From an uncultured Alphaproteobacteria bacterium (GTDB lineage Bacteria > Pseudomonadota > Alphaproteobacteria > ATCC43930 > CGMCC-115725): a stretch of DNA of 64,000 bases. The stretch covers positions 643,168 through 707,167 of the forward strand of contig CAWCOH010000002.1 in the NCBI GenBank assembly GCA_963797115.1. Direction: 5' to 3'. This document shows positions 11,448-44,390 of the stretch, one piece after another (the stretch's first letter is position 1; each line of letters starts with the position of its first letter). The translations under genes and the position numbers were made by a program. A model generated the notes under the pieces. It did not search any database. It was not told where the DNA came from and was given only the letters and a program-made list of their open reading frames with translations.

Positions 11448-12490
11448 CTCAAATAGTCGACAATGACCTGCACCGCTTTGTCCGCTGCATGTCCGTCTCC
11501 AAAAGCGTTGACGTCACGCCGCGGTGCGTAGCCCGGCCCCTTCCATAAGCGGTTCCACCCTGCCGACACCGTCTCCACCCACTCCGTCTCACTCCGCATG
11601 GTGACGCAAGGTATCCGATGGAAATAGGCTTCCTTCTGCAATCCGCCGGAATCGGTGAAGACGGTCTTCGCCGACTGCACCAGCCGATGCATGTCGAGAT
11701 AGCCGAGGGGATCGCAGACGATGATTTCGCCGAGATCGAGCCTCCATTCTGCAATCCGGTTGCGCGTTCGCGGATGCACCGGAAACACCACGACGTGCTC
11801 GCGCGTCAGCGCCTTAAGATAGGCGATTGCCTCGCTTAATGCCTGACGGTCGTCAGTGGTTTCGGCACGGTGCAGAGTGGCGACGACATAGGAACGCGCG
11901 CCGATACCGAACCGATCCAGCACGTCAGATCGATCAAAGTTGACGGCAGCAAACCGGACGGTGTCGTACATCACATCACCGACATGATGCACCCCGTTGA
12001 TAATTCCTTCCCGGCGCAGATTTTCCACCGCGGTTTCGGTGGGGCAGAGCAGGAGAGTGCTGACATGGTCAGCCAACACTCGGTTGATCTCTTCGGGCAT
12101 GCGGCGATTGAAAGACCGCAGCCCCGCTTCGAGGTGGGCGATTGGGAGATGCAGCTTCGCGGCGGCCAATGCGCCGGCGAGCGTCGATGTCGTATCGCCG
12201 GGCACGACCACGAGGTCGGGCGCCTCGGTTACCATGATTTTCTCGAGAGCCTCGATCATCCGACCGGTCATCTTGCCGTGGCTGCCACTGTGGATCCCGA
12301 GGTTCACATTCGGCTCGGAAATCTGCAGCTCGTCAAAAAAGATACGCGATAGGCTCGGATCGAAATGCTGGCCAGTATGGACGAGTATCTCGGTGATACC
12401 GCCATGGGCGGCTATCGCCCGCGACATGGCGGCGGCTTTGACGAATTGCGGCCGTGCACCGACGACCGTGAGGATACGCCACGTCGTCAC
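11411..12490 (-). CDS. wecB: UDP-N-acetylglucosamine (or UDP-GlcNAc3NAcA) 2-epimerase, non-hydrolysing
   Basis: 359 aa with ILTVVGARPQFVKAAAM, HTGQHFD and HLEAGLRSF motifs. Its 4-nt ATGA overlap with the upstream SDR gene suggests translational coupling. Confidence 0.92.
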   Translation of the reverse strand: MTTWRILTVVGARPQFVKAAAMSRAIAAHGGITEILVHTGQHFDPSLSRIFFDELQISEPNVNLGIHSGSHGKMTGRMIEALEKIMVTEAPDLVVVPGDTTSTLAGALAAAKLHLPIAHLEAGLRSFNRRMPEEINRVLADHVSTLLLCPTETAVENLRREGIINGVHHVGDVMYDTVRFAAVNFDRSDVLDRFGIGARSYVVATLHRAETTDDRQALSEAIAYLKALTREHVVVFPVHPRTRNRIAEWRLDLGEIIVCDPLGYLDMHRLVQSAKTVFTDSGGLQKEAYFHRIPCVTMRSETEWVETVSAGWNRLWKGPGYAPRRDVNAFGDGHAADKAVQVIVDYLRCPTKVESKPSC

Positions 12491-13575
12491 GGGTAGACTG
12501 CGCGCAGCTCGGGCAAAAAGCCGGAGTGCTGCAGCATGCAGCGCCGGATCGTCTCTCGATTATCGCGCGTCCAGTCGATAGTGCGCTGAAGGCCCTCGGC
12601 CAGGAGCGTGAGGACGGCAAATTGCAATCTGTCACGAGCCTTGTCCGTCGCGCCGAAGCGTCTGCCCGAGCGGTCCCAGTCGCGGGCCCCGGCAATCGCC
12701 AAGGGAGTGTGATTACTTGTCAAGCGATTGATTAGGCCTGCCAAGTCGAGAATCGACGTCTCCACCCCGGAGGCAAGATTGTAGACCTCGCCAGGCTCGC
12801 CGTTTGCCGCGCAAGCAAGAAGGCCACGCACGATGTCGCCGACAAAAATAAAATCGCGCGTAGCGACTCCGCCGTTTTCAATCGGCAGCGCCTCATCGTG
12901 CAGCGCCTTCCAGATGAAAGTCGGTATGACGTTTCGCCACACCGTATGTGGCGTGCCGCGCCACCGTCCGGCACCAAGGATCTCGCCCGGCCCATAGACG
13001 TTTTGGAACCGCGCCTTCACAACAGGCAGGCCATAGCGTACGAAGTAATAATTACCGTACATCTCGCCAACGAGCTTTGAAATGCTATAGGGGCTATCAT
13101 GGTACAGCGAGACCGGCATGTCTTCGGTCGTGGCACTCGCCTCGTCGAAGGTCTTGATTGCGGCCGCACAGCCGGCAGAAGCATAAACTACCTTCTGCAG
13201 CGAGCGGATACCTTTCAAGCGGTCGAACAGCTTCAGCGTCGTCAAGGTATTGTTGGCGTGATCGGCAAGGGGGTCGTGGATGGATGACTGGTTGCCGTGA
13301 TAGCAGGCAAGGTGAAAGACGAAATCGAGATCATTCGGCAGTGATTTGAGCACTGCGTCGTCAGCGATCGAGCCAAGGATAAATTCAACAGCGGAATGCT
13401 TCGGCACGTTCGCGATATCGGCCGACACCAGATTGTCGACGATAAAGAGGAGTTGCGGACCTTGCGAGAGCAACTGGCGCACAAGGTTTCCACCGACAAA
13501 CCCCGCGCCACCGACCACGAGGATTGCGCTACCCCTTATGCCCGAACCCATCACGACGGCGACTGCGCGGCCCAC
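12487..13575 (-). CDS. NAD-dependent sugar-nucleotide epimerase/dehydratase (extended SDR)
   Basis: Rossmann motif VVGGAGFVGGNL and catalytic YSISK. An alternative start at ATG 13551 would overlap the upstream stop by 1 nt. Confidence 0.85.
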   Translation of the reverse strand: MGRAVAVVMGSGIRGSAILVVGGAGFVGGNLVRQLLSQGPQLLFIVDNLVSADIANVPKHSAVEFILGSIADDAVLKSLPNDLDFVFHLACYHGNQSSIHDPLADHANNTLTTLKLFDRLKGIRSLQKVVYASAGCAAAIKTFDEASATTEDMPVSLYHDSPYSISKLVGEMYGNYYFVRYGLPVVKARFQNVYGPGEILGAGRWRGTPHTVWRNVIPTFIWKALHDEALPIENGGVATRDFIFVGDIVRGLLACAANGEPGEVYNLASGVETSILDLAGLINRLTSNHTPLAIAGARDWDRSGRRFGATDKARDRLQFAVLTLLAEGLQRTIDWTRDNRETIRRCMLQHSGFLPELRAVYP

Positions 13576-14495
13576 GGCTTCAGATGGCTAAAGGTCGCCG
13601 AAACGCCATGCGCGTCGTACCAACAAAGGACGCGTCTGATCGTCTCGGCGAAATCAACCTTGGCCTTCCAGCCAAGCAGCGCGAAGGTGTAGGCGGGATC
13701 GAGCACCACGGCAGCGATGTCATCGGCAGCCACTGGAACCACCTGAACCGGTGTAGCCGTATCGACACCGAGATGCGCCGCTACCTCCTCGAAAACCTCC
13801 TTGATCGAGTGCCCGAGCCCGGTCGACACGTTGAAGATGCCTGTCGGTGCGTCCTCGCGCAGGACTATATCCATCAGATCGATAAAATCGGCCATGTCGA
13901 GGAAGTCGCGCACCGCATCGCTGCAGAAGCATTTCTGGCCGGCCTTGAGCCGCTGATAGAAGGCCGGGATCGGTCCGATCGCAAGACGCGGCCCGCAAAT
14001 GTTGGCAAGACGCAGAGACACCCAGGAGAGCTCGCTCTGGGCGACGTAGGCTTCTCCGGCGGTCTTGCTAATGCCATAGCTAGTAATCGGCCGGGTCGGA
14101 TGATCGGCCGGGATCGGCACACGCTCCGGCCGGCCATAGCACAACGCCGTCTGGAAATTGACGAATCGCTTGACGCCAGCGCGCCTTGCCGCCTCTAGCA
14201 CGTTGATAGTGCCGACCACATTGGTACCCGCGTCCTCGCGCCAGTTCCCTGGATCCTTGTAGGCGGCGGCGCTGTGAATGACATGCGTGGGTGCAAAGCA
14301 GGCAAAGACTTCGTCGACGAAATCACGATCGGCAATCGTCCCGCAACCAGCCGAAAGGCCCGGAACATCGGGCAGAGCTTCGCGTCGACCGGTGGCAAAG
14401 TTGTCGATCGCGAGGATTTCGTGGCCGCGGGGCAGGTAAGTCTCGATCAGGTTCGAGCCGAGACAGCCCGCGCCGCCGGTGATCAGAACCCTCAC
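13551..14495 (-). CDS. NAD-dependent epimerase/dehydratase (extended SDR), tandem paralogue A
   Basis: MRVLITGGAGCLGSNL, IDNFATGRRE and catalytic YGISK. It is a paralogue of the next gene. Confidence 0.88.
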   Translation of the reverse strand: MRVLITGGAGCLGSNLIETYLPRGHEILAIDNFATGRREALPDVPGLSAGCGTIADRDFVDEVFACFAPTHVIHSAAAYKDPGNWREDAGTNVVGTINVLEAARRAGVKRFVNFQTALCYGRPERVPIPADHPTRPITSYGISKTAGEAYVAQSELSWVSLRLANICGPRLAIGPIPAFYQRLKAGQKCFCSDAVRDFLDMADFIDLMDIVLREDAPTGIFNVSTGLGHSIKEVFEEVAAHLGVDTATPVQVVPVAADDIAAVVLDPAYTFALLGWKAKVDFAETIRRVLCWYDAHGVSATFSHLKPWAAQSPS

Positions 14496-15430
14496 GAATT
14501 CCCCTCGAAGCGGAGATGCGTGTAGCCGCCCTGGACCCCTCGGTCCCGGTAATAGGCGACGGTCTCTTCGACAATATCGTCAAGCGGCGTAAAGGTCATC
14601 TCCCCGAAATCGCGTATGGTGCGCGCCGGGTCGAGCAGGATGGTGGGCGCATCGTCGGCTGCAAGCGGCCGGATTTCTGGAGCCGGGTATTCGTTGAGCT
14701 TCATCGCCCGGACCACCGCGTCGTAGAGATCTTTGATCGCAACATCCCGGCCGGAAGAGAAATGGTAGGTGCCGTTCCCGATGCCGTCGGCAGCGCTCAA
14801 TACAATGCGCGCGAGATCCTGCACAAAGACGAAATCGCGCCGCGCCTCGGTGACAAAACAGCGCTTTCCCTGCGACAGCCTCTCGAAAAAAATCGGCAAT
14901 GGGCCGCTGACGTTGCGCGGCCCAATCACATTAGCGAGACGAAAGGTGATCCAGTCGACCCCGCTCATTTCGATGTAGCGCTCGCCGGCTGTTTTGGAGA
15001 TCGCATAGCTGTTGCCCGCCGGATTGACCGGGTGATCCAGCGTGATCGGCTGTTCGAGCGGGTTGGTACCGTAGCACAAGGCGGTCTGAAAGTAGATCAG
15101 CCGGCCGACCTTGTGGCCCTTGCAGGCGCCCGCGACGTTGGCGCTGCCGACGCAGTTGGTCAGGGCATCCGATTCCCAGTCGTCCGGGTCCTTGTAGGAG
15201 GCGGCGGTGTGGACGACCACATCGGGACGAAAATCGCCGACCAGACCGTCGACGATCCGCGCGTCGGCGATGCTCTCCTCGACCAAGCGGAGGCGCGGGT
15301 GCGGCGACAGGTTGTCTCGCCGGCCAGTCGCAAAATTATCGATCGCGACCACCTCGTCGCCGCGGGCGAGCAGCAAGTCGCTGACCGTGGAGCCGACCAG
15401 CCCGGAGCCGCCGGTCACAAGCACCTTCAT
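14492..15430 (-). CDS. NAD-dependent epimerase/dehydratase (extended SDR), tandem paralogue B
   Basis: Start set at MKVLVTGGSGLVGS (ATG 15430). Carries IDNFATGRRD and catalytic YAISK. 4-nt overlap with the downstream gene. Confidence 0.88.
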   Translation of the reverse strand: MKVLVTGGSGLVGSTVSDLLLARGDEVVAIDNFATGRRDNLSPHPRLRLVEESIADARIVDGLVGDFRPDVVVHTAASYKDPDDWESDALTNCVGSANVAGACKGHKVGRLIYFQTALCYGTNPLEQPITLDHPVNPAGNSYAISKTAGERYIEMSGVDWITFRLANVIGPRNVSGPLPIFFERLSQGKRCFVTEARRDFVFVQDLARIVLSAADGIGNGTYHFSSGRDVAIKDLYDAVVRAMKLNEYPAPEIRPLAADDAPTILLDPARTIRDFGEMTFTPLDDIVEETVAYYRDRGVQGGYTHLRFEGNS

Positions 15431-15473
15431 CTCAGTCGCTCTTACCCTGGGTTTCGGACCGGGCACACATCGG

Positions 15474-17291
15474 CTAATCGACGCATCTGTGAGCACTCAT
15501 TTCGAGCAGCAGCAATTCAAAGAACGGAATATCCGAAGACATCCCCGATTGGACTTTGTACCGGTCGATAGCCGTCTTCCTCGCTTCTCGGCCGCACGAT
15601 TCTTCATGGCAGCGAACCAATTCGGCAAGGGCATCCTCACCCGCGCCGGTCCTGATCTCCGCGCGCACTTGGTCCGGCGGCAAGTTCAGTTCTTCTGCAA
15701 TCGCAGACAACGACAAGAAGCCGTCGGGTCCACGGCGAAGATCGAGCTTGTGCAATTGGACCAGAGCCTGGTCTTCGATCTCGTCATACGGAGTTAATCC
15801 CCTTCGGTGGTCGAGTCCGGTGGCCGTCGCGAGTGCGGGTCCTGGAAGATCGACCTTTGCGAAGCAGTTCGCTTGTCCTTGGGTGACATAGAGCGCGTAG
15901 GGCGCGCTCGGCGAGCTCAGCACTACGCCTCTCATTACGGTGTGTGCTTCAATAAAATACATCAGCGCGCCAAACAGCCGCAATGTATCATTTTTCAGCA
16001 ACAGAAGCCCATCGGTCTTCAGCGCCTGACCAAGTTTGACCTTCACCAGCGTGCCGTATGACGGCACTGCGAGAAAGCCATCAATCGACACCGGTACCGT
16101 CGCCAGATGGACATGGCCGTTCCACCCGATCCCGAGCGACAACGATCGATCACGATCGGGAAGCGGCTCGGCTTGATGCGCGTGTTGCACGATCAGCGCC
16201 TTAATCGATCGTTCGGCGCTCGACGGCGAGGGATCGATGATCACCACCTTGGGCGAAAATGTGGACAATATGGCTAGGTCGGTGCCGACGGGTATTGTCG
16301 AATACGGCATCTGGAGCCCTGCCGGACCCGGGGTTGTCCCCCCGACGACGTCGAGCAGTTTGCCAACCCGACCAGCGAAAGCGATACGGTAGATCCCTCC
16401 GGTATGGGCATCGGTAATCGTAAGGATATTGTTTTCGTCGACTGCTATCCCCGTCGGCCACAGAAACTCCAGGCAGCTCGCGTTCCACCCGGGCCGGCCA
16501 AAGGAGCCTATTTTTTGGCCGGTGCTCAGATCCAAGACGAAGATCTGTCTCAGTTCCAGGGACGAAACGAACACCAAATCACCGAGGATCGCGACGCCAT
16601 GGGCGAAGGTGATGTCCGTCTTCCATTTCTCTACATATTGGCCGCCGGCTCGTGCGAAGGCTGTTGCGCTGTTGCCGTCGAAATTCGCGGATACGACCCA
16701 CGACTCATTCGGCGTGATTGCAATATTTTCAGGAGAAATCAGCCCATCACCGGTAAGCGCTTGCTCAAAGACTATCCGGGCTCCAGCAATACTTCCAATC
16801 AGTATATTGTCGGCCTCATAGTTGGCCAGAAACACCTTGCCCGTCTCAGGACCGATCGCGATGCCGGTAGGTACGTATTTCTTGTTGTTGAGATTGCCGA
16901 GGTCGGCATCTAGCCTTGCAACCTCTCCGGTCCGAATATTCAGAGACCGAATATCGAGGTAGGTGGCGATCAATAAAGTTTGCCGATCGGCCGTCAAAGC
17001 ACCGGCAGCCAGCAGGCCGTCGAGCTGCGGCCGCACCATCGTTATAGCGTCAGCTGCGACATGCAGCGGTGCGGGAGCAAAACGGGGATCGCCGACGCGG
17101 TCGATAAAAGGATAAGTAGATTCCACGGCGCGGGTCTCGGCCCGGCATTCGGAGGGAACCTCGACCCGGATCGCATCGGCGGCCGCCGCGGAGCCGAGCG
17201 CAAAAACTGATACACCGGCGATCTGCAGGAGCCACGCTTCAGCTCGCCGAAGCACCGCGCCGGCAGCAGTCAAAAAGGTCGCGCCTGGCAT
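15474..17291 (-). CDS. exported beta-propeller-repeat protein of unknown function
   Basis: 605 aa. The N-terminus has RR plus a hydrophobic stretch AWLLQIAGVSVFALGSAAAA (signal peptide or anchor). Four or more repeats of the P.GIA(I/V) type (PTGIAIGPETGKVFLANY, PENIAITPNESWVVSANF, AHGVAILGDLVFVSS, PTGIAVDENNILTITD) fit NHL/YVTN-like blades. I do not recognise the C-terminal ~250 aa. Confidence 0.7.
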   Translation of the reverse strand: MPGATFLTAAGAVLRRAEAWLLQIAGVSVFALGSAAAADAIRVEVPSECRAETRAVESTYPFIDRVGDPRFAPAPLHVAADAITMVRPQLDGLLAAGALTADRQTLLIATYLDIRSLNIRTGEVARLDADLGNLNNKKYVPTGIAIGPETGKVFLANYEADNILIGSIAGARIVFEQALTGDGLISPENIAITPNESWVVSANFDGNSATAFARAGGQYVEKWKTDITFAHGVAILGDLVFVSSLELRQIFVLDLSTGQKIGSFGRPGWNASCLEFLWPTGIAVDENNILTITDAHTGGIYRIAFAGRVGKLLDVVGGTTPGPAGLQMPYSTIPVGTDLAILSTFSPKVVIIDPSPSSAERSIKALIVQHAHQAEPLPDRDRSLSLGIGWNGHVHLATVPVSIDGFLAVPSYGTLVKVKLGQALKTDGLLLLKNDTLRLFGALMYFIEAHTVMRGVVLSSPSAPYALYVTQGQANCFAKVDLPGPALATATGLDHRRGLTPYDEIEDQALVQLHKLDLRRGPDGFLSLSAIAEELNLPPDQVRAEIRTGAGEDALAELVRCHEESCGREARKTAIDRYKVQSGMSSDIPFFELLLLEMSAHRCVD

Positions 17292-26307: not shown

Positions 26308-27318
26308 TTATGGCCCCGCAGGCTTTATCGCCCGCGCCTCGACGCCGTTGCCGCCATAGCTCGCCTCTATATTCTGGAGGCCGAGGCGCTGAAGGAGGAC
26401 GGCGATTTGCTCCACAGTACGCTTGTGCTTGTAAAAGTCGGTCAGTGCGTCATGAGTATCGAGAGCGGCCCACGCGTATAGGAGGCGGGGCCCGAGCCGG
26501 CTGTAATAATCGTGATAGTCCAGTACGGGCGAGAGCTGAAGCCAGCGTCTACGCCCGGCAGCGATCCAGCGATAATCGGACAGGCGCCACAACAGCCGAT
26601 GCGTTGGCCACAGGATCGTCACGATGGCCCGAACGAGGGCCAGCGCAAATCGAGGACTCCTGCGAATCAGAAATGCCCGCAAAAGTTGACGAACCCGCGT
26701 CATGTCGCTCGCGTCGTATCGATAGTGGTCAATGATAAGCGAACCTCCCGGCTTGACGAAATCACAGAGAACCGTGATCGTTTCTTCGGGATCGGGTGTG
26801 TGTTAAATCACGCCGAGGCAAATCACGAAATCGAACGCTTCCCGGCGCGCCGGAAGCTCGCGCAGATCGGCTTGACAGACAAAATAACCCGCCGCTCCAC
26901 GGCAATTGTCATAATTGGCTTCGACCGCCGCGGACAGGTCGCTTGCAAACACCCGGGCTCCGTGTTTAAGCAACAACTCGGTGAAACGACCCGCGCCACA
27001 TCCCACCTCCAGCACATTCTTGTCGCGAACCACGGCCAACGACCCGCCGAGGCAGCGTGTCAGGCGATCTCGTGAAATCGCGGTACCGGTAGAAGAATCG
27101 AGCTGCGTGCGTCGGTATCTCTTCCATTGCTCGCCGAAGCCGGCAGCATAACCGTCCCAACCGACAAATCGCGGGACACTGCGTACGACAGGGATGCGGC
27201 ACCCGGATCGGCAGACGATTGTTCGGGTCAAGGGCGTTATATCTATGGCGCCCTCTTCGCTCAAGAGTGGAAAGCCGTGTGTGAGGCAACACAGTTCTTC
27301 GGGCAGGCGCATTGGCAA
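26308..27318 (-). pseudogene. class I SAM-dependent methyltransferase interrupted by one in-frame TAA
   Basis: ORFs 26803-27318 and 26308-26703 lie in the same frame. Read-through gives ...VLEVGCGAGRFTELL...FDFVICLGVI*HTPDPEETITVLCDFVKPGGSLIIDHY..., a complete methyltransferase fold. The stop (minus strand, 26803-26805) sits where Q or E is expected before the conserved H. Confidence 0.8.
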
Positions 27319-27332
27319 TCAGCAAACTCGAC

Positions 27333-28535
27333 CTACGTCCGCGCGGTGGCAGTTACGGTCTTGAGCAGATGCTCGACCCGGTGGGCATAAGTGTGCTGGG
27401 TCATCACGTAATCGTAAGTCTCCTCTACCATACGCCGTCTGTAATCATCGTCGCGGAACCGCTCTAATGCTTCATCTATATTTCCGAAATCTTTGCGAAG
27501 GGCGATGTAATGCCGGTCGGCTTCGATGATGCCGTTGTACTGCCCGGTGATTAAGATCTGGCAGGTCTTGGTACCGACGGGTTCGAAATGTCGAGACGAT
27601 ATGCTCTTGCCAAATATTTCGCGGGACTGGCACCGGTAGAACTTATCGAATACTTCGTCGAAACTTGCCTCACGATTTTCGGAGAGATTATAGGCCCGCG
27701 CCCGCTCTAGCAACTTGCCGCGCTCATTGAGATAATAACTGCCGGATTCGGCGCCGATGGTAGCCCTGCAGCCGTTCAGGAAGTGTCTCCATTCCTGACG
27801 GCCGAGCCGCTGTCTGCGAATATCACAATGCAGGCCGCGCTTGGCGCCGTGCCGCTCGAACCACTCGATCAAATCCGTTCTTTCGCGGTCGCCGACAAAA
27901 GGCCAATAAATTTCCCCGACAAAGCCGATATCGATGGCGCGCGGTATTGCGGATTCGGGGAAGTAGGCCCTTGGGTTGAGGGCATGTGGCATCTCGACAA
28001 TGCGGCTCCTTTCGCATTCTTGGTACAGATAGCCGGCGGTCGCCAACGGGAGCTGAGTGCAGATGAATTCGGCTTCGGTCTCGCGGAGAAAAGCGATCTT
28101 GTCGTCCAAAATATCGTACTCGTTGCCGATGAATACGACCAGCGGCGCCCGCCGCCGGTCGAACCACCGTGCCGCGCGCCGCAACACGGTCAAGTCATCA
28201 CCGGCGGCAACATGCGACACCACAATCAGATCGTATTTCTGCAGCCGCAATAGACAGCGCCCGAAATGGACCAGGTTGTTGATGTTGCACACCTCGACAC
28301 TCAGATCGGGGGCGTCCAGGAAGGCCTCGCGCCAATCAGCAGCGTAGGACAATTGGGCGTAGACATCGCGCAATTCGGAGAACAGGGTATTGATCCACCG
28401 ATAGCGCTGCAGCAGTACGGGCGGGCGGTCGCCATTCCGATAGCCGAGCATCTGGCGCAGCACCGTGTCGACAACGAGCATTTGCGATCCGACCCCATTC
28501 GCGTCGAGATATAGGGTGTGCAGGCGATCCGTCAT
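27333..28535 (-). CDS. CgeB-like glycosyltransferase-fold protein (module 2)
   Basis: Paralogue of 10236-11447 (ISSRHFEPVGTKTCQILITGQYNGIIEADRHYIALRKDFGNIDEALERF; FIGNEYDIL versus FVANEYNLP). The start is set at ATG 28535 (MTDRLHTLYLD) to match the paralogue length; the open frame continues to 28691. Confidence 0.75.
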   Translation of the reverse strand: MTDRLHTLYLDANGVGSQMLVVDTVLRQMLGYRNGDRPPVLLQRYRWINTLFSELRDVYAQLSYAADWREAFLDAPDLSVEVCNINNLVHFGRCLLRLQKYDLIVVSHVAAGDDLTVLRRAARWFDRRRAPLVVFIGNEYDILDDKIAFLRETEAEFICTQLPLATAGYLYQECERSRIVEMPHALNPRAYFPESAIPRAIDIGFVGEIYWPFVGDRERTDLIEWFERHGAKRGLHCDIRRQRLGRQEWRHFLNGCRATIGAESGSYYLNERGKLLERARAYNLSENREASFDEVFDKFYRCQSREIFGKSISSRHFEPVGTKTCQILITGQYNGIIEADRHYIALRKDFGNIDEALERFRDDDYRRRMVEETYDYVMTQHTYAHRVEHLLKTVTATART

Positions 28536-28703
28536 GTAGGGTCCAAGAGAGCCCGCTGTCGGGGCAGCGGTCACGCGGCTACTGGGCGCGACTATGGCAA
28601 TCGGGCGAACCCGATACCGCAAACAATCAATCGGCGTGTACTGGCGACAGCGGCCGCAATAGCAGGCATAATTTCGCGAGCGTGCGAGCAAATCACTCGT
28701 CGT

Positions 28704-31670
28704 TCACTGTGATTGCGCACCTCGGAAGCGGCGTCGAAAATTGGTCCTGATATATCTTAGCGGCAATAACATTGGCGTCGGCAAAGACTTAATGGCGATA
28801 ATGACGCGCGCTCTAATACAAAGCAAAAGCAACTGCCCGATGGACGCAGCCTGGAGCCGGTTGACCTCACGGGCAAGCCGCGCGGTCTCGCTGGCGAGTT
28901 CTGATCGCACGAACTCCACTTCGTTGATGAGGCGGCTCGTTTCGCTGGCGAACTCGGAGCGCAGATAGTCGACTTCCTGGGTCAGGCGTTTGATCTCGGC
29001 GCCAGCAAAAAGAGGCACGGCGTCGTCCAATTTTTCCGTTAGCTTTGGCCGCATCTCACGGCCATGCTTTATCCACGAAAAATCGAGATCGGTTCGCGCC
29101 GAAATCGCCCTAATCCGGACGGCGGCACCGAGCTTGGCATACATGTCGCGGCTGACCGTCTTCCAATTGAAATTTTCTTCGAAACACCGGTAAGATCGGC
29201 GCGACATTTCGAGTATCTGGTTCTTGGATGCAACTAGGTCGTTAAGGACTCTCGCAAGTGTATCATGGTCGTGAAAGTCGACTGCGAGGCCAATTTTATT
29301 TTCTACCACGACACTCTTCACGAACTCTAATTCACTGTTGCAGATGATGGGCACGCCAGCCGCCATGTATTGCGAGAGCTTATTGGGACTACAATACCGA
29401 TTGTTGAGCGAACTCGCGGCATAGGGGATGATGCCGATGTCGGCTTGCCGCGCCGCTCTCACGAGTTCGCTCGTCTCGACGGCGGGCGGGAAGAAGATGC
29501 GATCGCCGAGCAGCTCTCGGCTACGCGCCAGCTCGATCATCTCCGTCTTGAAGGGACCGTCTGGTCCCTGCAACAAGAGACGCGCTCTCTTATCGACATG
29601 GTGCCATGCGGTAATCAGATCCTCGAGGCCGCGCCCTGCAACAAATCCTCCAAGAAAGATAAAATCGACCTTATCCCGTGCCAGCAAGCGATCGATCGCC
29701 CGATCGATGTCGACGGGATGGACCGAATCGTCGATCGCGCAGTTTGGCACCGTCAGAAAATTGCAGCCATATTCTTTCGACATCAGAGCTGCTAGTTGCG
29801 GCGATACCGTAACCCGCAAGTCAGCGCGCGGCGCCAGATTTCGCTCGAACACCGACCAGAACTCGATTTCCCAATGCCGGTACTCCATAAATGCGTACGG
29901 CCAAAACTCGTGCGCATCATAAAGCACCGTCGCACCGTTCTCCTCGGCCAGGGCAAGAGCCGCGGGCAGTGTATTGAGGTCGGTGGCGACTATTGCATCG
30001 AATTCGCCGATCAACCGTCCGGCTTGAAGAAGTGCGCTGTTGGTGTGGAGAAAGTGGCGGGTGGCCCAGCGAAACCGGAAAAGATCCTCCTCGGTCGCAT
30101 CCAGGGCACCGACAGCGCGCCCGAGCGCTTTCGCAGGCAACTCCGCAAGGACATATAGGAGCATGAGATGTTGAAGAGCGATTGAATTTCCACTCGCCAA
30201 TCCCGCAATGTCGGGGATTAGGTCGCAGTCATGATGCTGGCGCCCGACCCGCAGTCGTGTCCTGCGCTCGGACAACCGCTCACAGCTCGGACTGGCGCCA
30301 TCGTCACCGTCGCAGGTCCCCAGTTCGCACACCTCGAAATCGTTCGACAGACCCTCGGCCATCCAATCAACGCGCGGGTCCATTGTCGGCTCATGACCCG
30401 CCAACAGCAATGCGCGCCGACCTCCTGGTGCCGGCACGGCGACATGACCGGCCGCGGCGCGCCGGCCCTTGCGGGCGAACACCCGGTCGACCGCGGCGTC
30501 GACTTGTTCGACGAAGGTCTCATAATGATATTTCCGGTTGAGGATAATTTCTTCGAAAGTGCGGTCCGCCATTTCGGACAATTGCTTTTGGTCGGCAACG
30601 AAATCGACGACCTCTTCAAAGTTCGTCAGATCCCGCTTTAGCGGAAAGTAGTGACGGTGAGAAAAAAATATTCCGGAATAATACCCCTCGTAAAGTATTT
30701 GTGCGGATCGCGTAGCAGCGGCTTCGAGGTGGCGTGGCGAGATCTGCGCATAATTGACGTTACCCTCAAATTTATGAAGATAGATCCGGTGCGCCTCGTT
30801 ATAAAACTCCTCCCCTAGTTGGTCTGTGCCCGAATGGCTGTTCTCGAACTCGCGACACCAACCCTCAACCTGGCCGTCGAAGTCAAAAAGGTTCGTGCCT
30901 GATTCGACGCCGAGAACGGCCTTGGAACTGCCGAGAAAGTCAAACCATGCCGTGCCGCCGATGCGATCCTCCCGATTGCTCGAAATGTTAACGTTGAGCG
31001 GATATCCGCGCGCCGCGTGGGCGACGTCGTAGCCGATTTTTCGCTTCTCGAAACCCAAGCGTCCGAAAGACAGCGGCTGGATCGAGCCGCGATAGGTGAT
31101 ATGGAACGGACGATCGACAATCCCGCCAAAAGCGAGCGACAGCATGAATGGCGATACGTATCCGGTGAACGCTTGGACAAATTCGACATTTCCCACGACA
31201 TCCGGCGGATAAACTTTGCCTCGCTCTTCAGGCGAGACACATGTAATGACGAGATCGAATTTCTTCTCACCGATAAATGTGGAAAAGCGGCTTGTGTGCC
31301 AGTGCTCGTCCTGCTTCATCAGGATCTTGACGCCGTCATATTGCTCGAACGGTCGGCCCAGCCCTCGATCCAGGGAATAGAGGTTGTCAGGATGGTAAGA
31401 AGTTGTGCAATGAACAATTAAGCCAGCGTAATCATCGAGATCTACTGTACTTGGTATTGTGAGAAAATCCGCACGAGTGGGCCAAAGGTTAAGAACCTCA
31501 ATTCCATATCGACTGAATTTCTGCCACAGTGCAATGTTCTCATAGATCGTCGCAATCCCCGTCGGATCGAAGAAGCACACCAACAATAATCGATCATCCG
31601 CCCTCCGATAGGGGCGACGACCGAGCTTTGGTCTCAGATCCAAGGAATTAATCACTCCGTCCAACATCAA
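28704..31670 (-). CDS. 988-aa multidomain glycosyltransferase: CgeB-like module + GT4 module + C-terminal coiled coil and basic/hydrophobic tail
   Basis: Residues ~1-400 carry the CgeB-like block ISPRHLEAAATRSAQILYEGYYSGIFFSHRHYFPLKRDLTNFEEV. Residues ~410-830 are GT4-like (GHEPTMDPR, YDAHEFWPY, SPNKLSQYMAAGVPIICN). The C-terminus has a heptad-like duplicated segment EVDYLRSEFASETSRLINEV / EFVRSELASETARLAREV, then IGQLLLLCIRARVIIAI and RTNFRRRFRGAQSQ. Confidence 0.85.
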   Translation of the reverse strand: MMLDGVINSLDLRPKLGRRPYRRADDRLLLVCFFDPTGIATIYENIALWQKFSRYGIEVLNLWPTRADFLTIPSTVDLDDYAGLIVHCTTSYHPDNLYSLDRGLGRPFEQYDGVKILMKQDEHWHTSRFSTFIGEKKFDLVITCVSPEERGKVYPPDVVGNVEFVQAFTGYVSPFMLSLAFGGIVDRPFHITYRGSIQPLSFGRLGFEKRKIGYDVAHAARGYPLNVNISSNREDRIGGTAWFDFLGSSKAVLGVESGTNLFDFDGQVEGWCREFENSHSGTDQLGEEFYNEAHRIYLHKFEGNVNYAQISPRHLEAAATRSAQILYEGYYSGIFFSHRHYFPLKRDLTNFEEVVDFVADQKQLSEMADRTFEEIILNRKYHYETFVEQVDAAVDRVFARKGRRAAAGHVAVPAPGGRRALLLAGHEPTMDPRVDWMAEGLSNDFEVCELGTCDGDDGASPSCERLSERRTRLRVGRQHHDCDLIPDIAGLASGNSIALQHLMLLYVLAELPAKALGRAVGALDATEEDLFRFRWATRHFLHTNSALLQAGRLIGEFDAIVATDLNTLPAALALAEENGATVLYDAHEFWPYAFMEYRHWEIEFWSVFERNLAPRADLRVTVSPQLAALMSKEYGCNFLTVPNCAIDDSVHPVDIDRAIDRLLARDKVDFIFLGGFVAGRGLEDLITAWHHVDKRARLLLQGPDGPFKTEMIELARSRELLGDRIFFPPAVETSELVRAARQADIGIIPYAASSLNNRYCSPNKLSQYMAAGVPIICNSELEFVKSVVVENKIGLAVDFHDHDTLARVLNDLVASKNQILEMSRRSYRCFEENFNWKTVSRDMYAKLGAAVRIRAISARTDLDFSWIKHGREMRPKLTEKLDDAVPLFAGAEIKRLTQEVDYLRSEFASETSRLINEVEFVRSELASETARLAREVNRLQAASIGQLLLLCIRARVIIAIKSLPTPMLLPLRYIRTNFRRRFRGAQSQ

Positions 31671-31730: not shown

Positions 31731-33312
31731 TCACTGCGTTTGCACACCGCGGAAGTGGCGGCGAAAGCTTGTCCGCATCCGTCGGAGTGGCGATAATAGC
31801 CGAGACGGGAAAACCTGAGAGAGCCGTACCTGGATCCGAAACAGCGCGAATTTCACTATGGACCTTGACTGGGAGTGGTCCATCTCGCCGACAAGTGGAC
31901 TGGTCTCCCTGATAAATTCAGATTGCACATAACTAAGCTCGCGGGCGAGACGCCCTGTCTCATTGATAAATTCCGATCTTTCAGAGCAGAGTTCGCGGTT
32001 AAGTCGACAGGTTCGTCGGCAAATCTGGATCGCAGACAGTTGAGGTCATGCTTCAGCGCGTCGTTCTCGGCAGAAAGTTGCCGGTACTGATAAAAGATTA
32101 CATCCCGAGGAACTGGCGTCGGCTCCTCCATTACAGTCGGCGACGAGGCGAGAAGCGTCTGACACACTGGTAATGGTACCGCTTGAGGTACGCAGAGCGA
32201 CTGTGTTGCGGCCAACTCCTCACGCTTGCGCCCGATCGCGTCATCGATGGTCGCGACAAAACGATGATAATCGTAATCGGAGGCAACGAGATGGTCGTAG
32301 GCGCGATCCGCCAATGCGTTCAGCCCGTCGATATTGTCGATTTGATCGAGAACGTGATCGACGTTCGAGAAATCTTTTCTCAGTTCGATATAATGCTTGC
32401 CGGATTCCATTATTCCGGAGTAGCGCCCACTGATCAGCACCATCGGCGTTCCCGTTGCCAGCGCCTCGAACGCCCTCGGGGATATTTGGCCCATTTCGAT
32501 GTCATTTTCACGAGGGTCGGCATAATGCCGAAACTCCTCATAGGTTGGTGCGCTACCCTTTTTTAGTTCGAGTTCGTTGTACTTAGGCCGCAGGCTGCCG
32601 TCGAAGTCGAAGATATTCGAACCGCTCTCGGTTCCGAGAGCGGTTCGGCAGCGCCCCAGGAAATCGTACCAAGCCTTGCCATAAAAGCGGCTTATCTCGT
32701 CGGTTTTAATGTCACAATCGATACTTCGCGCCGCACTTATCTCACGCATGCGTCGGCCAATCTCGTATTTGTCGAAGCCTAAGCGCCCGTAATGACCGCG
32801 AATTTGACGTCCCCGATTAGCCGATCGCGATCGGCCTTTGGGCTAATGGTATCCGAGTCCGCCAGCTGACCTTCAGCACCGACGGCACGTAACCGGTCAA
32901 CACGGTGATGAATTCCGTTTCGGGAAACATTCGGCTCGGATAGACAAACTCGTGCGACTGCGACGGCACGCAGGTGAAGACTAGGTGGAAACCGATCTCC
33001 CGAATGGCCTCACGCAGAGCGTTGGTCCGATCGTACTCGTCCTGAACGGCGATTAGGCGAACGCCGCGAAAGCTTTTTGAGAGCGTCGATATATGATCGA
33101 CTTACGTGACCGAAAATACACAGTCTTGCACAATAGCTGTTAAGAACGGCATCGAATTGGTTTAGATCAAAATCGACTTCTACGCCCTGCGTTACATGCA
33201 CGTAGCTGACATCGTATGAGGAGTAACGCTTTATACTCGAAAGATACTGCATGGTCGTCGCCACATGCGTCGCCGCGTTCGAATAGGCGACGAGCAGCCT
33301 GCCGCCTGTCAT
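31731..33312 (-). pseudogene. decayed paralogue of the CgeB-like module and coiled-coil tail of the 988-aa glycosyltransferase
   Basis: Homology to the 988-aa protein continues across at least three frame breaks. (1) 33010-33312 (LLVAYSN...VEVDFDLNQFDAVL) shifts frame near 33080 into FRGVRLIAVQDEYDRTNALREAIREIGFHLVFTCV. (2) A 1-nt insertion gives RPIAIG-TAA at 32817-32819, where IGYRGRQIRGHYGRLGF is expected. (3) The coiled-coil tail RSEFINETGRLARELSYVQSEFIRETS...RTSFRRHFRGVQTQ lies in another frame (31731 to about 31990). Confidence 0.78.
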
Positions 33313-33352: not shown

Positions 33353-35269
33353 TCAGGCGGCGGCCGCGCCGCCGGTTTCCGCCATCGGCGCCGCGATTTC
33401 AGCCGCGGCGCGATCACCGGGAGCATCAGTAAGACCGCGGATGACGACAGCCACCGGTAACTCTACTAATCCCAGTGCGATCGAGCCGCTGTAATCTTCA
33501 TTCACCTTAAAGTAGATACATCGATCCCAGTGACACAAGAAAGGAATTCGATGTGAGTGGGGCCAATGATAGTCGAACATCGGAAGCAGTTCGAAGCTTC
33601 CGACGTATTCTCCCTGGCGTATATTGGGCCGGTCGAGACGAAAGAGAACTTCGGTCTTTCCAAGTGCAAGGCCAGCCTCGAACTTGTGAACGCCGAGAAA
33701 CACACGATTGCCTTGGGCGTCGAAGATAATCCCAGCAAGCCAGCAAATCGGAAGCCGAACTCGAATTTCGATCGTAATCTTGAACGTGATCGCGTCCCCC
33801 AGCCCAAAGATATGCCGGTCTGCCGCGCCGGTGGCCTCGCAAGTGGAAATGCGCAGAAAGCGGGCTTCCTCAGTTTCCCACTTGTCCCGTGGGGCATCGA
33901 GTGGACCGCCATCTGATGGCGCGACATCATTACCCATCGTCGAGCACACATCTGCGACGCCAGTGTCGCCGACGAAAACATCCGGGGCGGTAGGGGCGAT
34001 CGCCACCTCATCAATTCGCCAAACCCGCGTCCTGTCGTTCTGGGTCAGAAGACCGAGGCGTCGAAAACCACCCGGTTCGTGGAGTTCGATTGCGATTTCT
34101 TCCCCCGGCGCGGCATCGTGCTCGATTTCGAACAACCTCGCTGAGCCAGCTAAGTCCGCAGGAACGCGAAAAAATATTGGGGCATGTGCATAAATGCCAC
34201 CAGTGTCTTCCAGACAACGCACGCGGCGCCCAGCGGTGAGGGTAGGCCGGCTCCAGATCATTAAACTGGGGTCAGTTTGGATATAACCCGGCTGCGTTAC
34301 GTCATTGTCCATTGGTTCGCCCAGCCACACCTCAAACCGTTTGCCACCGTCAAAAACAAGCGCCAAGCGATGCACTGCATGGCTGAGCGTGGGCAGACCC
34401 CCGTCCGCTACAACCAAACGAAACAACATTTCTTGCTCGTCGCTGCAACCTTCATCGGAGCCGTCGCGGCGCCGCATGCGTGAGACTGCCTGGCTGGTTT
34501 GGGCCCGCAGCCGCGCCTCCTCGCGTTCGATGACCGAGGCATAATAGGCTTTACTGATGTCGAGCGTCGGTCCTTCCGCCTTGATCCGGCCGCGGTCGAG
34601 CCAGATCGCCCGCTCGCACAACCTCTGCACACTTGAGATGTCGTGACTGACGAACAGGACCGTGGCGCCGGTTTCCTTAGTCAGGCGTCGCATCCGCTCG
34701 GTACACTTGCCCGCGAAATAAGCGTCGCCCGCCCCTAGTATCTCGTCGATGATGAGCACCTCGGGAACAATCGCAGTGGAGGTCGAAAATGCCAGCCGCG
34801 CATACATCCCGGTCGAATAAGTCTTGACTGGCTGGTCGATGAATTCGGCGAGTTCGGAAAAATCGACGATCTCCTCGAAGCGCTCGGCCGCATCGCGCCC
34901 GGTGATCCCTTGATAGGCGAGTGCGGAGTAGATGTTTTGCCGGCCGGTAAACTCAGGGTGGAAGCCGGTACCGAGATCCATCAGCGCCTGGATCGCGCCT
35001 CGGACCCGGACCGAGCCGGAGCTCGGCTGCAACCGTCCGCAGATGATGCTCAGAAGCGTTGATTTGCCGGCCCCGTTTTGACCGATAATGGCGAGGCTTT
35101 CGCCCCGCCGAATCTCAAGTGAAATCCCGCGCAACGCCCAGAACTCGTCGCAAGCATTTTTCGGCAGTGGTAAACCAAGGGCCTCGAACACCCGGTAACG
35201 CGGATGCCGGTAACGCTTGAACACCCGCGAAACGTCGTGCACCGCTATCGCGGTATTCTCCTCAGACAT
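33353..35269 (-). CDS. wzt: polysaccharide ABC-exporter ATP-binding protein Wzt with a long two-part C-terminal extension
   Basis: Walker A GQNGAGKSTLL, the signature region YSTGMYARLAFS and Walker B LIIDEILGAGD. About 390 extra residues follow. The last ~150 (FLRISTCEATG...ITFKITIEI...GIIFDAQGNRVFLGVHKF...LRLDRPNIRQGEYVGSFEL) look like a Wzt_C beta-sandwich carbohydrate-binding module. Confidence 0.9.
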   Translation of the reverse strand: MSEENTAIAVHDVSRVFKRYRHPRYRVFEALGLPLPKNACDEFWALRGISLEIRRGESLAIIGQNGAGKSTLLSIICGRLQPSSGSVRVRGAIQALMDLGTGFHPEFTGRQNIYSALAYQGITGRDAAERFEEIVDFSELAEFIDQPVKTYSTGMYARLAFSTSTAIVPEVLIIDEILGAGDAYFAGKCTERMRRLTKETGATVLFVSHDISSVQRLCERAIWLDRGRIKAEGPTLDISKAYYASVIEREEARLRAQTSQAVSRMRRRDGSDEGCSDEQEMLFRLVVADGGLPTLSHAVHRLALVFDGGKRFEVWLGEPMDNDVTQPGYIQTDPSLMIWSRPTLTAGRRVRCLEDTGGIYAHAPIFFRVPADLAGSARLFEIEHDAAPGEEIAIELHEPGGFRRLGLLTQNDRTRVWRIDEVAIAPTAPDVFVGDTGVADVCSTMGNDVAPSDGGPLDAPRDKWETEEARFLRISTCEATGAADRHIFGLGDAITFKITIEIRVRLPICWLAGIIFDAQGNRVFLGVHKFEAGLALGKTEVLFRLDRPNIRQGEYVGSFELLPMFDYHWPHSHRIPFLCHWDRCIYFKVNEDYSGSIALGLVELPVAVVIRGLTDAPGDRAAAEIAAPMAETGGAAAA

Positions 35270-36047
35270 ATTCGGCGAACACCGGTTTCAGGCGTCGAAA
35301 CAATTCGAAGCCGAGCCAAAATGTGCTGAAGGCAATGACCGTAAAGAACAGCCAGAACCGTGGTGAAAATACTCCGAAGATCAGCACCTGCCGATAAAGT
35401 TCGATTATATAAAATAATGGGTTGAGATAACCGATCGCCAGCAGCTGATGAGGAATCATCTCGCGCGTGTATCCGATTGGAGAGACGATCATCAAGAACA
35501 GCACGAATATGCCGATGGCCTGCGCTGTATCGCGCAAGAAGACGTTCATCGCAGATAAGATCCAACCGACCCCAATCGAAAATATTATCTGCAGCAACAG
35601 CAATGGGATGATCAGGACCTGGGTGAAATGAAACTCCCCGCGGCTCCACAGCGCAAAAAGCAAGCCGACGAGACCGATCGTCATTGATAAAGAGCTAGAC
35701 ATCACAGATTTAACTGGTACTAGCTCGATTGGAAACATCGTGTTCTTGATAAGATGTTTGTTGCTGACTACCGAGCTTACAGAGCTGCCCAACACTTCGG
35801 CGAATCCGATAAATGGTATCAGCCCCGCGAATATAATGAGGATGTATTCGATCGGGGAGTAACTTTGTAGCTGTACTCGTAAAATCAGTGCGTAAATGCT
35901 AGCATAAAGTCCGAGAAAAAGAAACGGATAGAGAATCGCCCAGCTCAAACCGAAGGCGGTCCCGACGTAGCGGGAGCGTATTTCCACGAGGGTTGTGGCA
36001 TACAGGATCCGCCGCGATCGAAACAACAGTCGCAGGGCACTGATCAA
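35262..36047 (-). CDS. wzm: ABC-2 type polysaccharide exporter permease Wzm
   Basis: 261 aa with six hydrophobic segments. It is AT-richer than its surroundings, overlaps wzt by 8 nt and has the typical N-terminal LF.SRR....T..EIR.RY..T.LG..W. Confidence 0.88.
   Translation of the reverse strand: MISALRLLFRSRRILYATTLVEIRSRYVGTAFGLSWAILYPFLFLGLYASIYALILRVQLQSYSPIEYILIIFAGLIPFIGFAEVLGSSVSSVVSNKHLIKNTMFPIELVPVKSVMSSSLSMTIGLVGLLFALWSRGEFHFTQVLIIPLLLLQIIFSIGVGWILSAMNVFLRDTAQAIGIFVLFLMIVSPIGYTREMIPHQLLAIGYLNPLFYIIELYRQVLIFGVFSPRFWLFFTVIAFSTFWLGFELFRRLKPVFAEYV

Positions 36048-42564: not shown

Positions 42565-44390
<1,826 letters not shown>

Follow-up and report, generated by a model that had tools for sequence, protein, structure and literature searches.

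The subject of this analysis is a 988-residue protein encoded on the minus strand of a 64,000-nucleotide stretch of DNA (the window) from an uncultured alphaproteobacterium (assembly GCA_963797115.1, contig CAWCOH010000002.1, positions 643,168 to 707,167). On balance we favour the view of a polymerase that has a peripheral anchor and a tether through which it oligomerises, and these would assemble the enzymes of its gene cluster at the membrane. The protein would be cytoplasmic and peripherally membrane-bound, with two GT-B glycosyltransferase modules, and it would most likely be the chain-extending polymerase of an O-polysaccharide of the Bordetella wbm-like, ATP-binding cassette (ABC) transporter-dependent kind, built of 2,3-diacetamido-2,3-dideoxy-hexuronic acids and their amides. 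The last 100 residues of the protein would form a two-part tether, in which a stalk of 18-residue units probably drives self-association or the pairing with a partner. The stalk and anchor, shared between enzymes, would thus gather the glycosyltransferases of the cluster into one membrane-bound complex, rather than act as a ruler inside one protein. The observations at hand are two folds, a repeat, a predicted helix, the gene context, the pattern of tails across the protein family and a shared cassette of stalk and anchor; the polymerase role, the oligomerisation and the peripheral membrane binding are what we infer.

The open reading frame (ORF) starts with TTG, followed by ATG at codon 2. 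The public gene call (P0001) is shorter, with 960 residues, but since an 'RPxLG' motif upstream of the start of that call is kept across 94 homologues, the true start is more likely to be at or near codons 1-10. For the whole protein, AlphaFold2 with an alignment of 95 sequences yields a predicted local distance difference test score (pLDDT) of 89.2 and a predicted template modelling score (pTM) of 0.82. Comparison with the Protein Data Bank (PDB) using Foldseek places both modules among the GT-B retaining glycosyltransferases, and each has residues that are invariant across the 95 homologues. These two modules are the only domains found by the Pfam, NCBIfam and structure searches, which gave no kinase, methyltransferase or 3-deoxy-D-manno-oct-2-ulosonic acid (Kdo) transferase domain.

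The N-terminal module is the most conserved part of the family. The residues that are invariant in the 95 aligned sequences include H87, D101, K115, K119 and E122, and further Y193-R194-G195-S196, S311, R313, H314 and E316. Modelled alone it adopts a GT-B fold with a pLDDT of 94.5, and its best Foldseek neighbours are of the GT4 type, with an E-value of about 4e-7 and a template modelling (TM) score of about 0.5; a sequence search of the PDB gave nothing useful, the single match having an E-value of 0.35. A preliminary description of the protein had called this module CgeB-like. The match of residues 1-410 to the family so named, PF13524 (Glyco_trans_1_2), reaches only 17.3 bits and stays under the cut-off of 25, although two of the three paralogues of the module in the cluster (those of 452 and 403 residues) do pass it. 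These two match the N-terminal module with E-values from 1e-13 to 3e-18.

For the second module, the domain and structure matches agree with the earlier designation as a GT4 module. The Pfam families Glyco_transf_4 and Glycos_transf_1 cover residues 533-824 (49 bits), the individual scores being 49.1 bits for PF00534 (cut-off 26.4), 45.4 for PF13692 and 31.8 for PF13579. The Foldseek matches, with E-values from 4e-14 to 1e-12 (about 1e-13), are GlgM, MshA, sucrose-phosphate synthase and BshA, all pointing to the GT-B fold with two Rossmann domains. It is important to point out that the canonical EX7E motif is absent in the alignment with 6KIH, where 'EPFGLvaIE' corresponds to 'SPNKL--SQ' (S761-P-N-K-L-S-Q767). 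The replacement is itself conserved in the family, P762 and S766 being invariant and N763, K764, L765 and Q767 being present in at least 90% of the members.

We now turn to the tail. The same description had noted a duplicated amphipathic segment, a hydrophobic stretch and a basic end, and all three are found here, together with the single open frame and the two folds that precede them. The duplication is a repeat of 18 residues, with one copy at 895-912 (RLTQEVDYLRSEFASETS), another at 913-930 (RLINEVEFVRSELASETA) and a partial third at 931-948. The first two copies are identical at 11 of 18 residues and at 36 of 54 nucleotides. The self-similarity score of the tail is 78, compared to 21.7 ± 4.1 for shuffled sequences, none of 2000 of which scored as high, and to values of 14-28 elsewhere within the protein. 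Since Tandem Repeats Finder, run over positions 28600-29200, finds no repeat at the DNA level and the duplication is seen only in the protein, it is old. By eye, the unit could be divided into a piece of 11 residues (ASETSRLINEV) and one of 7, and the longer piece seems akin to units of the form 'Y[SPT]xEIxRLNxV' that are seen in homologues.

AlphaFold2 predicts one helix over residues 889-960, with a pLDDT of 78-88 for residues 891-930 and below 50 after about residue 941, and ahead of the helix there is a low-confidence hinge at residues 879-888. Up to the hydrophobic end the helix comprises about 55 residues and is about 8 nm (about 80 Å) long. The hydrophobic periodicity of the tail peaks at 3.6-3.67 residues and not at 3.5. 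The hydrophobic residues occupy positions 2, 6, 9 and 13 of each unit and form a straight, narrow seam that has a polar gap once per unit. When searched alone against Pfam, the tail gives only sub-threshold matches (E 0.014-0.1), all with families of coiled-coil proteins, Fzo_mitofusin and Rootletin among them. A window-based 'coil-like' score was also considered and was dropped, as it rejects windows with proline and rates the tail of the present protein no higher than the catalytic core. Many units in the homologues begin with Tyr-Pro, and self-similarity scores were therefore used instead.

The helix runs into the most hydrophobic part of the protein, the top 19-residue Kyte-Doolittle window being 942-960 (1.9), which is interrupted by R953 and R955. 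The last 18 residues have a net charge of +6. We consider this end to be a probable peripheral membrane anchor, because a membrane-spanning segment would place the +6 end in the periplasm and because the corresponding stretch in the homologues is amphipathic and basic.

The homologues allow the two parts of the tail to be viewed separately. Downstream of the 'DFxWI' motif, where the conserved core ends, the tails vary from 28 to 248 residues, and nearly all of them finish in a basic, amphipathic segment; the charge over the final 35 residues is +5 to +11, and 'W[RK]xLPxxxR...' is frequent there. Of the 115 family ORFs, 25 have the pattern W[RKH]x[LIMVF]P within their last 70 residues, compared to 5 of 1189 other ORFs, and three of these five are other glycosyltransferase-sized proteins of the same clusters. 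Many different glycosyltransferases in loci L001-L070 thus have this pattern at their end, and it may be a shared signal for anchoring or docking. The pattern is followed by an Arg/Lys-rich amphipathic sequence and is sometimes duplicated (L024, P0081); the copy in the window is at 28707-28790.

The stalk is distributed differently. If tails that score at least 60 in self-similarity are counted as repetitive, about 19 of the 95 aligned members have such a tail, and in 17 of these it consists of helix-type units: ten of 11 residues, four of 18 and three of 25-36. The other two are a duplicated anchor (P0081) and a Pro/Glu-rich tail (P0117). Five of the remaining tails are Pro/Ala-rich, and all others are either short or unclassified. 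Repeated stalks cluster in the part of the distance tree where the present protein is located, and in one smaller group in addition. In the clade of the present protein the stalk is made of 11- or 18-residue units with a repeat span of 30-147 residues, P0015 and P0016, for example, having 73% identity in the core, yet repeat spans of 52 and 104 residues. The beta- and gammaproteobacterial members have no stalk. The 11-residue units 'Y[PST]xEIxRLNxV' occur in up to about 9 copies in the tails of P0015, P0016, P0018, P0026, P0039, P0042 and L021. Many of them open with Tyr-Pro, an unusual feature if the coiled coil is to be continuous, and the [ST]xxE pattern also resembles a helix N-cap.

The closest relative of the tail is found in the immediate neighbourhood. 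Between wzt and the gene of the 988-residue protein there is a paralogue that combines an N-type module with a stalk of the 18-residue type and the same basic end. The two tails are 42.6% identical over 94 residues (E 4e-19), and the tail of the present protein is closer to this one than to any of 119 homologue tails. The paralogue is split over four or more fragments in different frames (33010-33312, 32817-32969, 31856-32749 and 31731-31928). As the other large genes of the cluster, 14 to 18 of them according to how its limits are set, are all intact, real decay is a more probable cause than an error in sequencing. Locus L003 has an intact orthologue with 515 residues, comprising module, stalk and anchor, next to P0006, which has a stalk of similar type. 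Neighbouring glycosyltransferases with stalks of similar type are seen in L001, L003 and L008. Such matched stalks on neighbouring enzymes suggest that they pair, or at least that they evolve in concert.

The evidence for the polymerase role comes from the gene context. A word-indexed search gave 188 relatives, typically of 900-1100 residues and covering about 87% of the query, and a scan of one genome per species gave 65 loci, with no match above 65% identity. The alphaproteobacterial members come from Microvirga, Bradyrhizobium, Bosea, Rhizobium, Aureimonas, Hyphobacterium and Rickettsiales, and the others from Bordetella pseudohinzii, Burkholderia multivorans, Trinickia, Acidovorax, Legionella and Coxiella. 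In every inspected locus with enough flanking DNA the family gene adjoins wzm/wzt and an AsnB-like amidotransferase gene, and in most of the inspected loci the WbmF/G/H trio is there as well. The full set is found in B. pseudohinzii, Burkholderia multivorans, a metagenome-assembled genome (MAG) of Legionella, Bradyrhizobium and several other MAGs. The exception is L004, whose contig stops directly downstream of the family gene and has a phage-like region upstream of it. Because of this constant association with wzm/wzt and sugar-precursor genes, the 988-residue protein is likely to be the chain-extending enzyme.

Some members of the family carry additional domains. A discoidin (F5-F8 type C) carbohydrate-binding domain is present at the C-terminus of P0086, P0088, P0090-P0092, P0096, P0097, P0102, P0106 and P0108, and in L015 and L035, where it replaces or precedes the anchor, and P0008 (1411 residues) is fused to a C5-epimerase-like domain.

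Several points weigh against the proposed explanation. As the GT4-like module lacks the EX7E motif, its activity cannot be assumed. The polymerase role is deduced from gene association only, and four or five other glycosyltransferase-like genes of the cluster could share this role or take it over. The AlphaFold2 model is that of a monomer, so that the pairing of helices is a matter of interpretation, and the confidence for the anchor is below 50. The sole partner in this genome with the same cassette is frameshifted, which means that heteromeric pairing would be lost here. Finally, the stepwise variation of the stalk length (30-147 residues) is what would be expected if the length mattered, which favours a ruler. 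On the other side, multiprotein polymerase complexes are known in the ABC-dependent O-antigen pathway (PMC11231755), and in the dual glycosyltransferase LARGE1 a coiled-coil stem dictates how the dimer is arranged (PMC9746966).

The first alternative to be considered is that the stalk is a passive spacer, or an amphipathic helix lying flat on the membrane, with repeats that neither oligomerise nor measure. Lipid-binding helices with 11-residue repeats are found in apolipoproteins, perilipins and synuclein. The fact that homologues replace the stalk by Pro/Ala-rich or short linkers (28-248 residues in total) is in line with this alternative, as are the periodicity of 3.6-3.67 instead of 3.5 and the frequent Tyr-Pro start of the 11-residue units, which is awkward for a rigid, continuous coiled coil. 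However, a helix lying on lipid should present a different surface: the hydrophobic seam is narrow, with about four positions per 18 residues, and the polar face is rich in Glu, Arg and Ser, its net charge being near zero or slightly negative. Further points against this alternative are the straight helix that AlphaFold2 predicts with fair confidence, and the type of repeat that the adjacent paralogues have in common, which suggests a selected, specific interaction. We regard this alternative as unlikely.

The second alternative is a ruler of the WbdD type, in which the stalk would keep the catalytic body and the membrane a set distance apart and its length would determine the modal chain length; one of the modules would cap the chain once the chain reaches it, while other glycosyltransferases of the cluster would extend it near the membrane. 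In the known rulers a coil separates the terminating enzyme from the polymerase or from the site where the polymerase docks (PMC11231755), and in WbdD, where this coil is about 200 Å long, the coil length sets the chain length (PMC6286764). The parts predicted here, namely catalytic part, helix and membrane-binding end, follow each other in the same order as in WbdD (PMC11231755; PMC6286764), and O chains of the Bordetella type end in a special capping sugar (PMC2615507). The Wzt of the window has 638 residues with a long C-terminal extension, in which residues 463-590 give a weak match to Wzt_C (21.8 bits, cut-off 30.4), and the orthologue in L001 has a Wzt_C-type domain on record. The difference between P0015 and P0016 shows, moreover, that the stalk varies by whole units within the clade.

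Against this, the stalk measures about 8 nm compared to about 20 nm in WbdD, a low-confidence hinge at residues 879-888 precedes the helix, and neither of the modules can be identified as a terminator. Moreover, the family is retained together with the precursor pathway in the species where it has no stalk, so that its conserved task is unlikely to be length-gated capping. Nor do the stalk and the carbohydrate-binding domain of Wzt co-occur across the family loci inspected. In L003 a long stalk goes together with a Wzt of 252 residues that has no binding domain, in L005 Wzt_C is found with a Pro/Ala linker, and L010, L024, L050 and others have a long Wzt and no stalk; L021 was left out of this comparison, its assembly appearing to be frameshifted. 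The methyltransferases of L003 and L005 carry neither a stalk nor an anchor, both of which a terminator of the WbdD type would have. We therefore consider a ruler of this kind doubtful, and marginally more so than a spacer. The preliminary description had gone further and proposed a self-contained polymerase and ruler with the architecture of WbdD and WbbB. What is supported of this proposal is the order of the parts along the chain and, by association, a polymerase role. The self-contained ruler is not supported, since both modules lie on one side of the helix, the terminator domain is missing and most homologues lack the helix while keeping the basic end.

We have also considered the case that, in this alphaproteobacterial clade, the polymerase itself has an adjustable stalk of 11- and 18-residue units, in place of a separate terminator of the WbdD type. 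The stalks of the paralogues would pair, and the number of units would set the geometry of the complex and thereby the chain length. This would amount to a ruler built into the polymerase complex, which could work even without a Wzt domain that reads the cap. We judge it to be quite improbable. Lastly, it is very improbable that the protein is a tail-anchored integral membrane protein with 944-960 as a single transmembrane helix: the hydropathy maximum of the protein does fall there, but we rejected this option in view of R953 and R955 in the middle of the stretch, of the established positive-inside rule, which the +6 end of a cytoplasmic enzyme would violate in the periplasm, and of the plainly amphipathic, basic equivalents in homologues, such as 'IGQLLLRAALLAGRVARLLRGPGR' in P0046.

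The tether with a peripheral anchor, which we prefer, has to be seen within the cluster as a whole, the features of which are collected in Table 1. The cluster extends over ~31 kb (about 8212-38865) on the minus strand around the gene of the 988-residue protein, and this gene is three genes away from wzm/wzt. Besides wzm/wzt, the cluster includes a fusion of the WbpB/WbpD type, a WbpE-like aminotransferase, a WbpI-like 2-epimerase and three consecutive short-chain dehydrogenase/reductase (SDR) enzymes. It further contains three AsnB-like amidotransferases, two more GT4 genes and a C5-epimerase-like gene. The SDR product of 14492-15496 matches Bordetella WbmH (PDB 2Q1W) with an E-value of 8e-144, and WbmG and WbmF are also matched. 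WbmF/G/H produce UDP-L-GalNAc3NAcA, a uridine diphosphate sugar, for the O chain of Bordetella (PMC2279256), and this chain is partly amidated, uses the ABC-transporter pathway and has a terminal special capping sugar (PMC2615507). Given the WbmF/G/H-like trio and this chemistry, the product of the cluster is very probably a related polymer of diacetamido-uronic acids or their amides.

Table 1. Features of the 988-residue protein and of the surrounding cluster (positions in the window)
Feature	Residues	Positions	Strand	Basis or remarks
Whole ORF: dual GT-B glycosyltransferase with C-terminal stalk and anchor	1-988	28704-31670	-	988 codons plus stop, one open frame
N-terminal module, divergent GT-B fold	1-410	30441-31670	-	AlphaFold2, Foldseek, weak PF13524
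Second module, GT4-like GT-B glycosyltransferase	418-860	29091-30419	-	Pfam, Foldseek, 6KIH alignment
Conserved 'DFSWI' motif, end of conserved core	863-867	29070-29084	-	Downstream tail variable
Predicted helical stalk, 18-residue repeats	889-943	28842-29006	-	Repeat statistics, AlphaFold2 helix, periodicity
Stalk unit 1		28935-28988		
Stalk unit 2		28881-28934		
Stalk unit 3 (partial)		28827-28880		
Hydrophobic-basic end, IGQLLLLCIRARVIIAI then KSLPTPMLLPLRYIRTNFRRRFRGAQSQ, candidate peripheral membrane anchor	944-988	28707-28841	-	Hydropathy, charge, homologues
Adjacent paralogue: N-type module, 18-residue-type stalk, same basic end (...PLRRMRTSFRRHFRGVQTQ)		31731-33312	-	Probable pseudogene
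Intact N-type paralogue, 452 residues, without stalk or anchor		27333-28691	-	PF13524 28.2 bits
Fourth N-type paralogue, 403 residues		10236-11447	-	PF13524 39.5 bits
ABC exporter		33353-36047	-	Wzt 33353-35269, Wzm 35262-36047
Three WbmF/G/H-like SDR enzymes		12487-15496	-	Sequence matches
S-adenosylmethionine (SAM)-dependent methyltransferase, Cys-rich N-terminus, frameshifted		26308-27318	-	Pieces 26803-27318 and 26308-26703

The frameshifted methyltransferase has intact counterparts in the related clusters L003 and L005, and it may be a decayed chain-capping enzyme. Taken together with the broken paralogue, this is a hint at a possible defect of chain termination in the strain. In the stretches at about 16-20 kb and 26-36 kb the G+C content is 55-58%, compared to 62-69% in the flanks, and this lower value suggests that the wbm-like cluster is of horizontal origin. 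At 15474-17291 on the minus strand there is a protein of 605 residues that belongs to no Pfam family; with homologues in L005 (537 bits) and L019 (125 bits), it is a conserved component of the pathway. Near the end of the cluster, at 42565-44390 on the plus strand, an element of the IS21 type is found, with an integrase-core ORF (339 residues) followed by an IstB-like ORF. The IstB-like frame of 395 residues overlaps the integrase-core ORF by about 380 bases, and the transposase gene may be frameshifted.

What is understood of the length control of ABC-transporter-dependent O-antigens comes from a few enterobacterial systems, in all of which the coil is in the terminating protein. The present family is a good candidate for the missing polymerase of the Bordetella-type diacetamido-uronic acid O-antigens in Alpha-, Beta- and Gammaproteobacteria. 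The natural series of stalks in one of its clades (30 to 147 residues) and the shared anchor motif provide a handle on whether the stalk length of a polymerase matters, and the motif also bears on how soluble glycosyltransferases gather at the membrane. If the stalk should be only a tether, the result is an ordinary though useful annotation.

It is instructive to compare the protein with known systems. WbdD of E. coli O9a and Klebsiella O3 has a catalytic region, an extended helix and a C-terminal membrane-associated amphipathic region, in the order in which the corresponding predicted parts are arranged here, and it likewise belongs to a wzm/wzt pathway (PMC11231755; PMC6286764). However, its catalytic region is a kinase and a methyltransferase, its coil of about 200 Å is trimeric, and the membrane-proximal end recruits the polymerase WbdA, whereas the present protein has glycosyltransferases, a helix of about 80 Å and no terminator domain, and no sequence similarity between the two was seen. 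WbbB (Klebsiella O12 and Raoultella terrigena) and ORF6 (Klebsiella O7) are similar to the present protein, with its predicted helix, in that they combine glycosyltransferase modules and a coiled coil in one polypeptide of an ABC-transporter-dependent system (PMC11231755). There, the coil is located between an N-terminal terminator (Kdo transferase or methyltransferase-kinase) and the C-terminal polymerase modules (PMC11231755), while here both modules come before the helix, and nothing catalytic follows it, only a basic end of 45 residues.

WbdA, which extends the chains in the wzm/wzt O-antigen pathway, has two modules of the GT-B/GT4 type in one chain, as the present protein does (PMC11231755). 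It lacks a stalk and depends on WbdD for its contact with the membrane (PMC11231755), while the present protein carries its own stalk and anchor, and has an N-terminal module that diverges much more within the GT-B fold. With regard to the locus, the cluster resembles Bordetella wbm, where wzm/wzt is likewise accompanied by several amidotransferases of the AsnB type and the WbmF/G/H trio. B. pseudohinzii encodes, in its corresponding locus, a family member with 40% identity, which, unlike the present protein, has no helical stalk but a short Pro-rich linker and a basic end. Finally, LARGE1, the animal enzyme that polymerises matriglycan, combines two glycosyltransferase domains with a coiled-coil stem and a membrane anchor (PMC9746966), to which the predicted stalk and candidate anchor of the present protein would correspond. 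It is a eukaryotic protein of the Golgi lumen with GT-A folds and with its anchor and stem at the N-terminus, and it is thus an analogy in design and not a relative.

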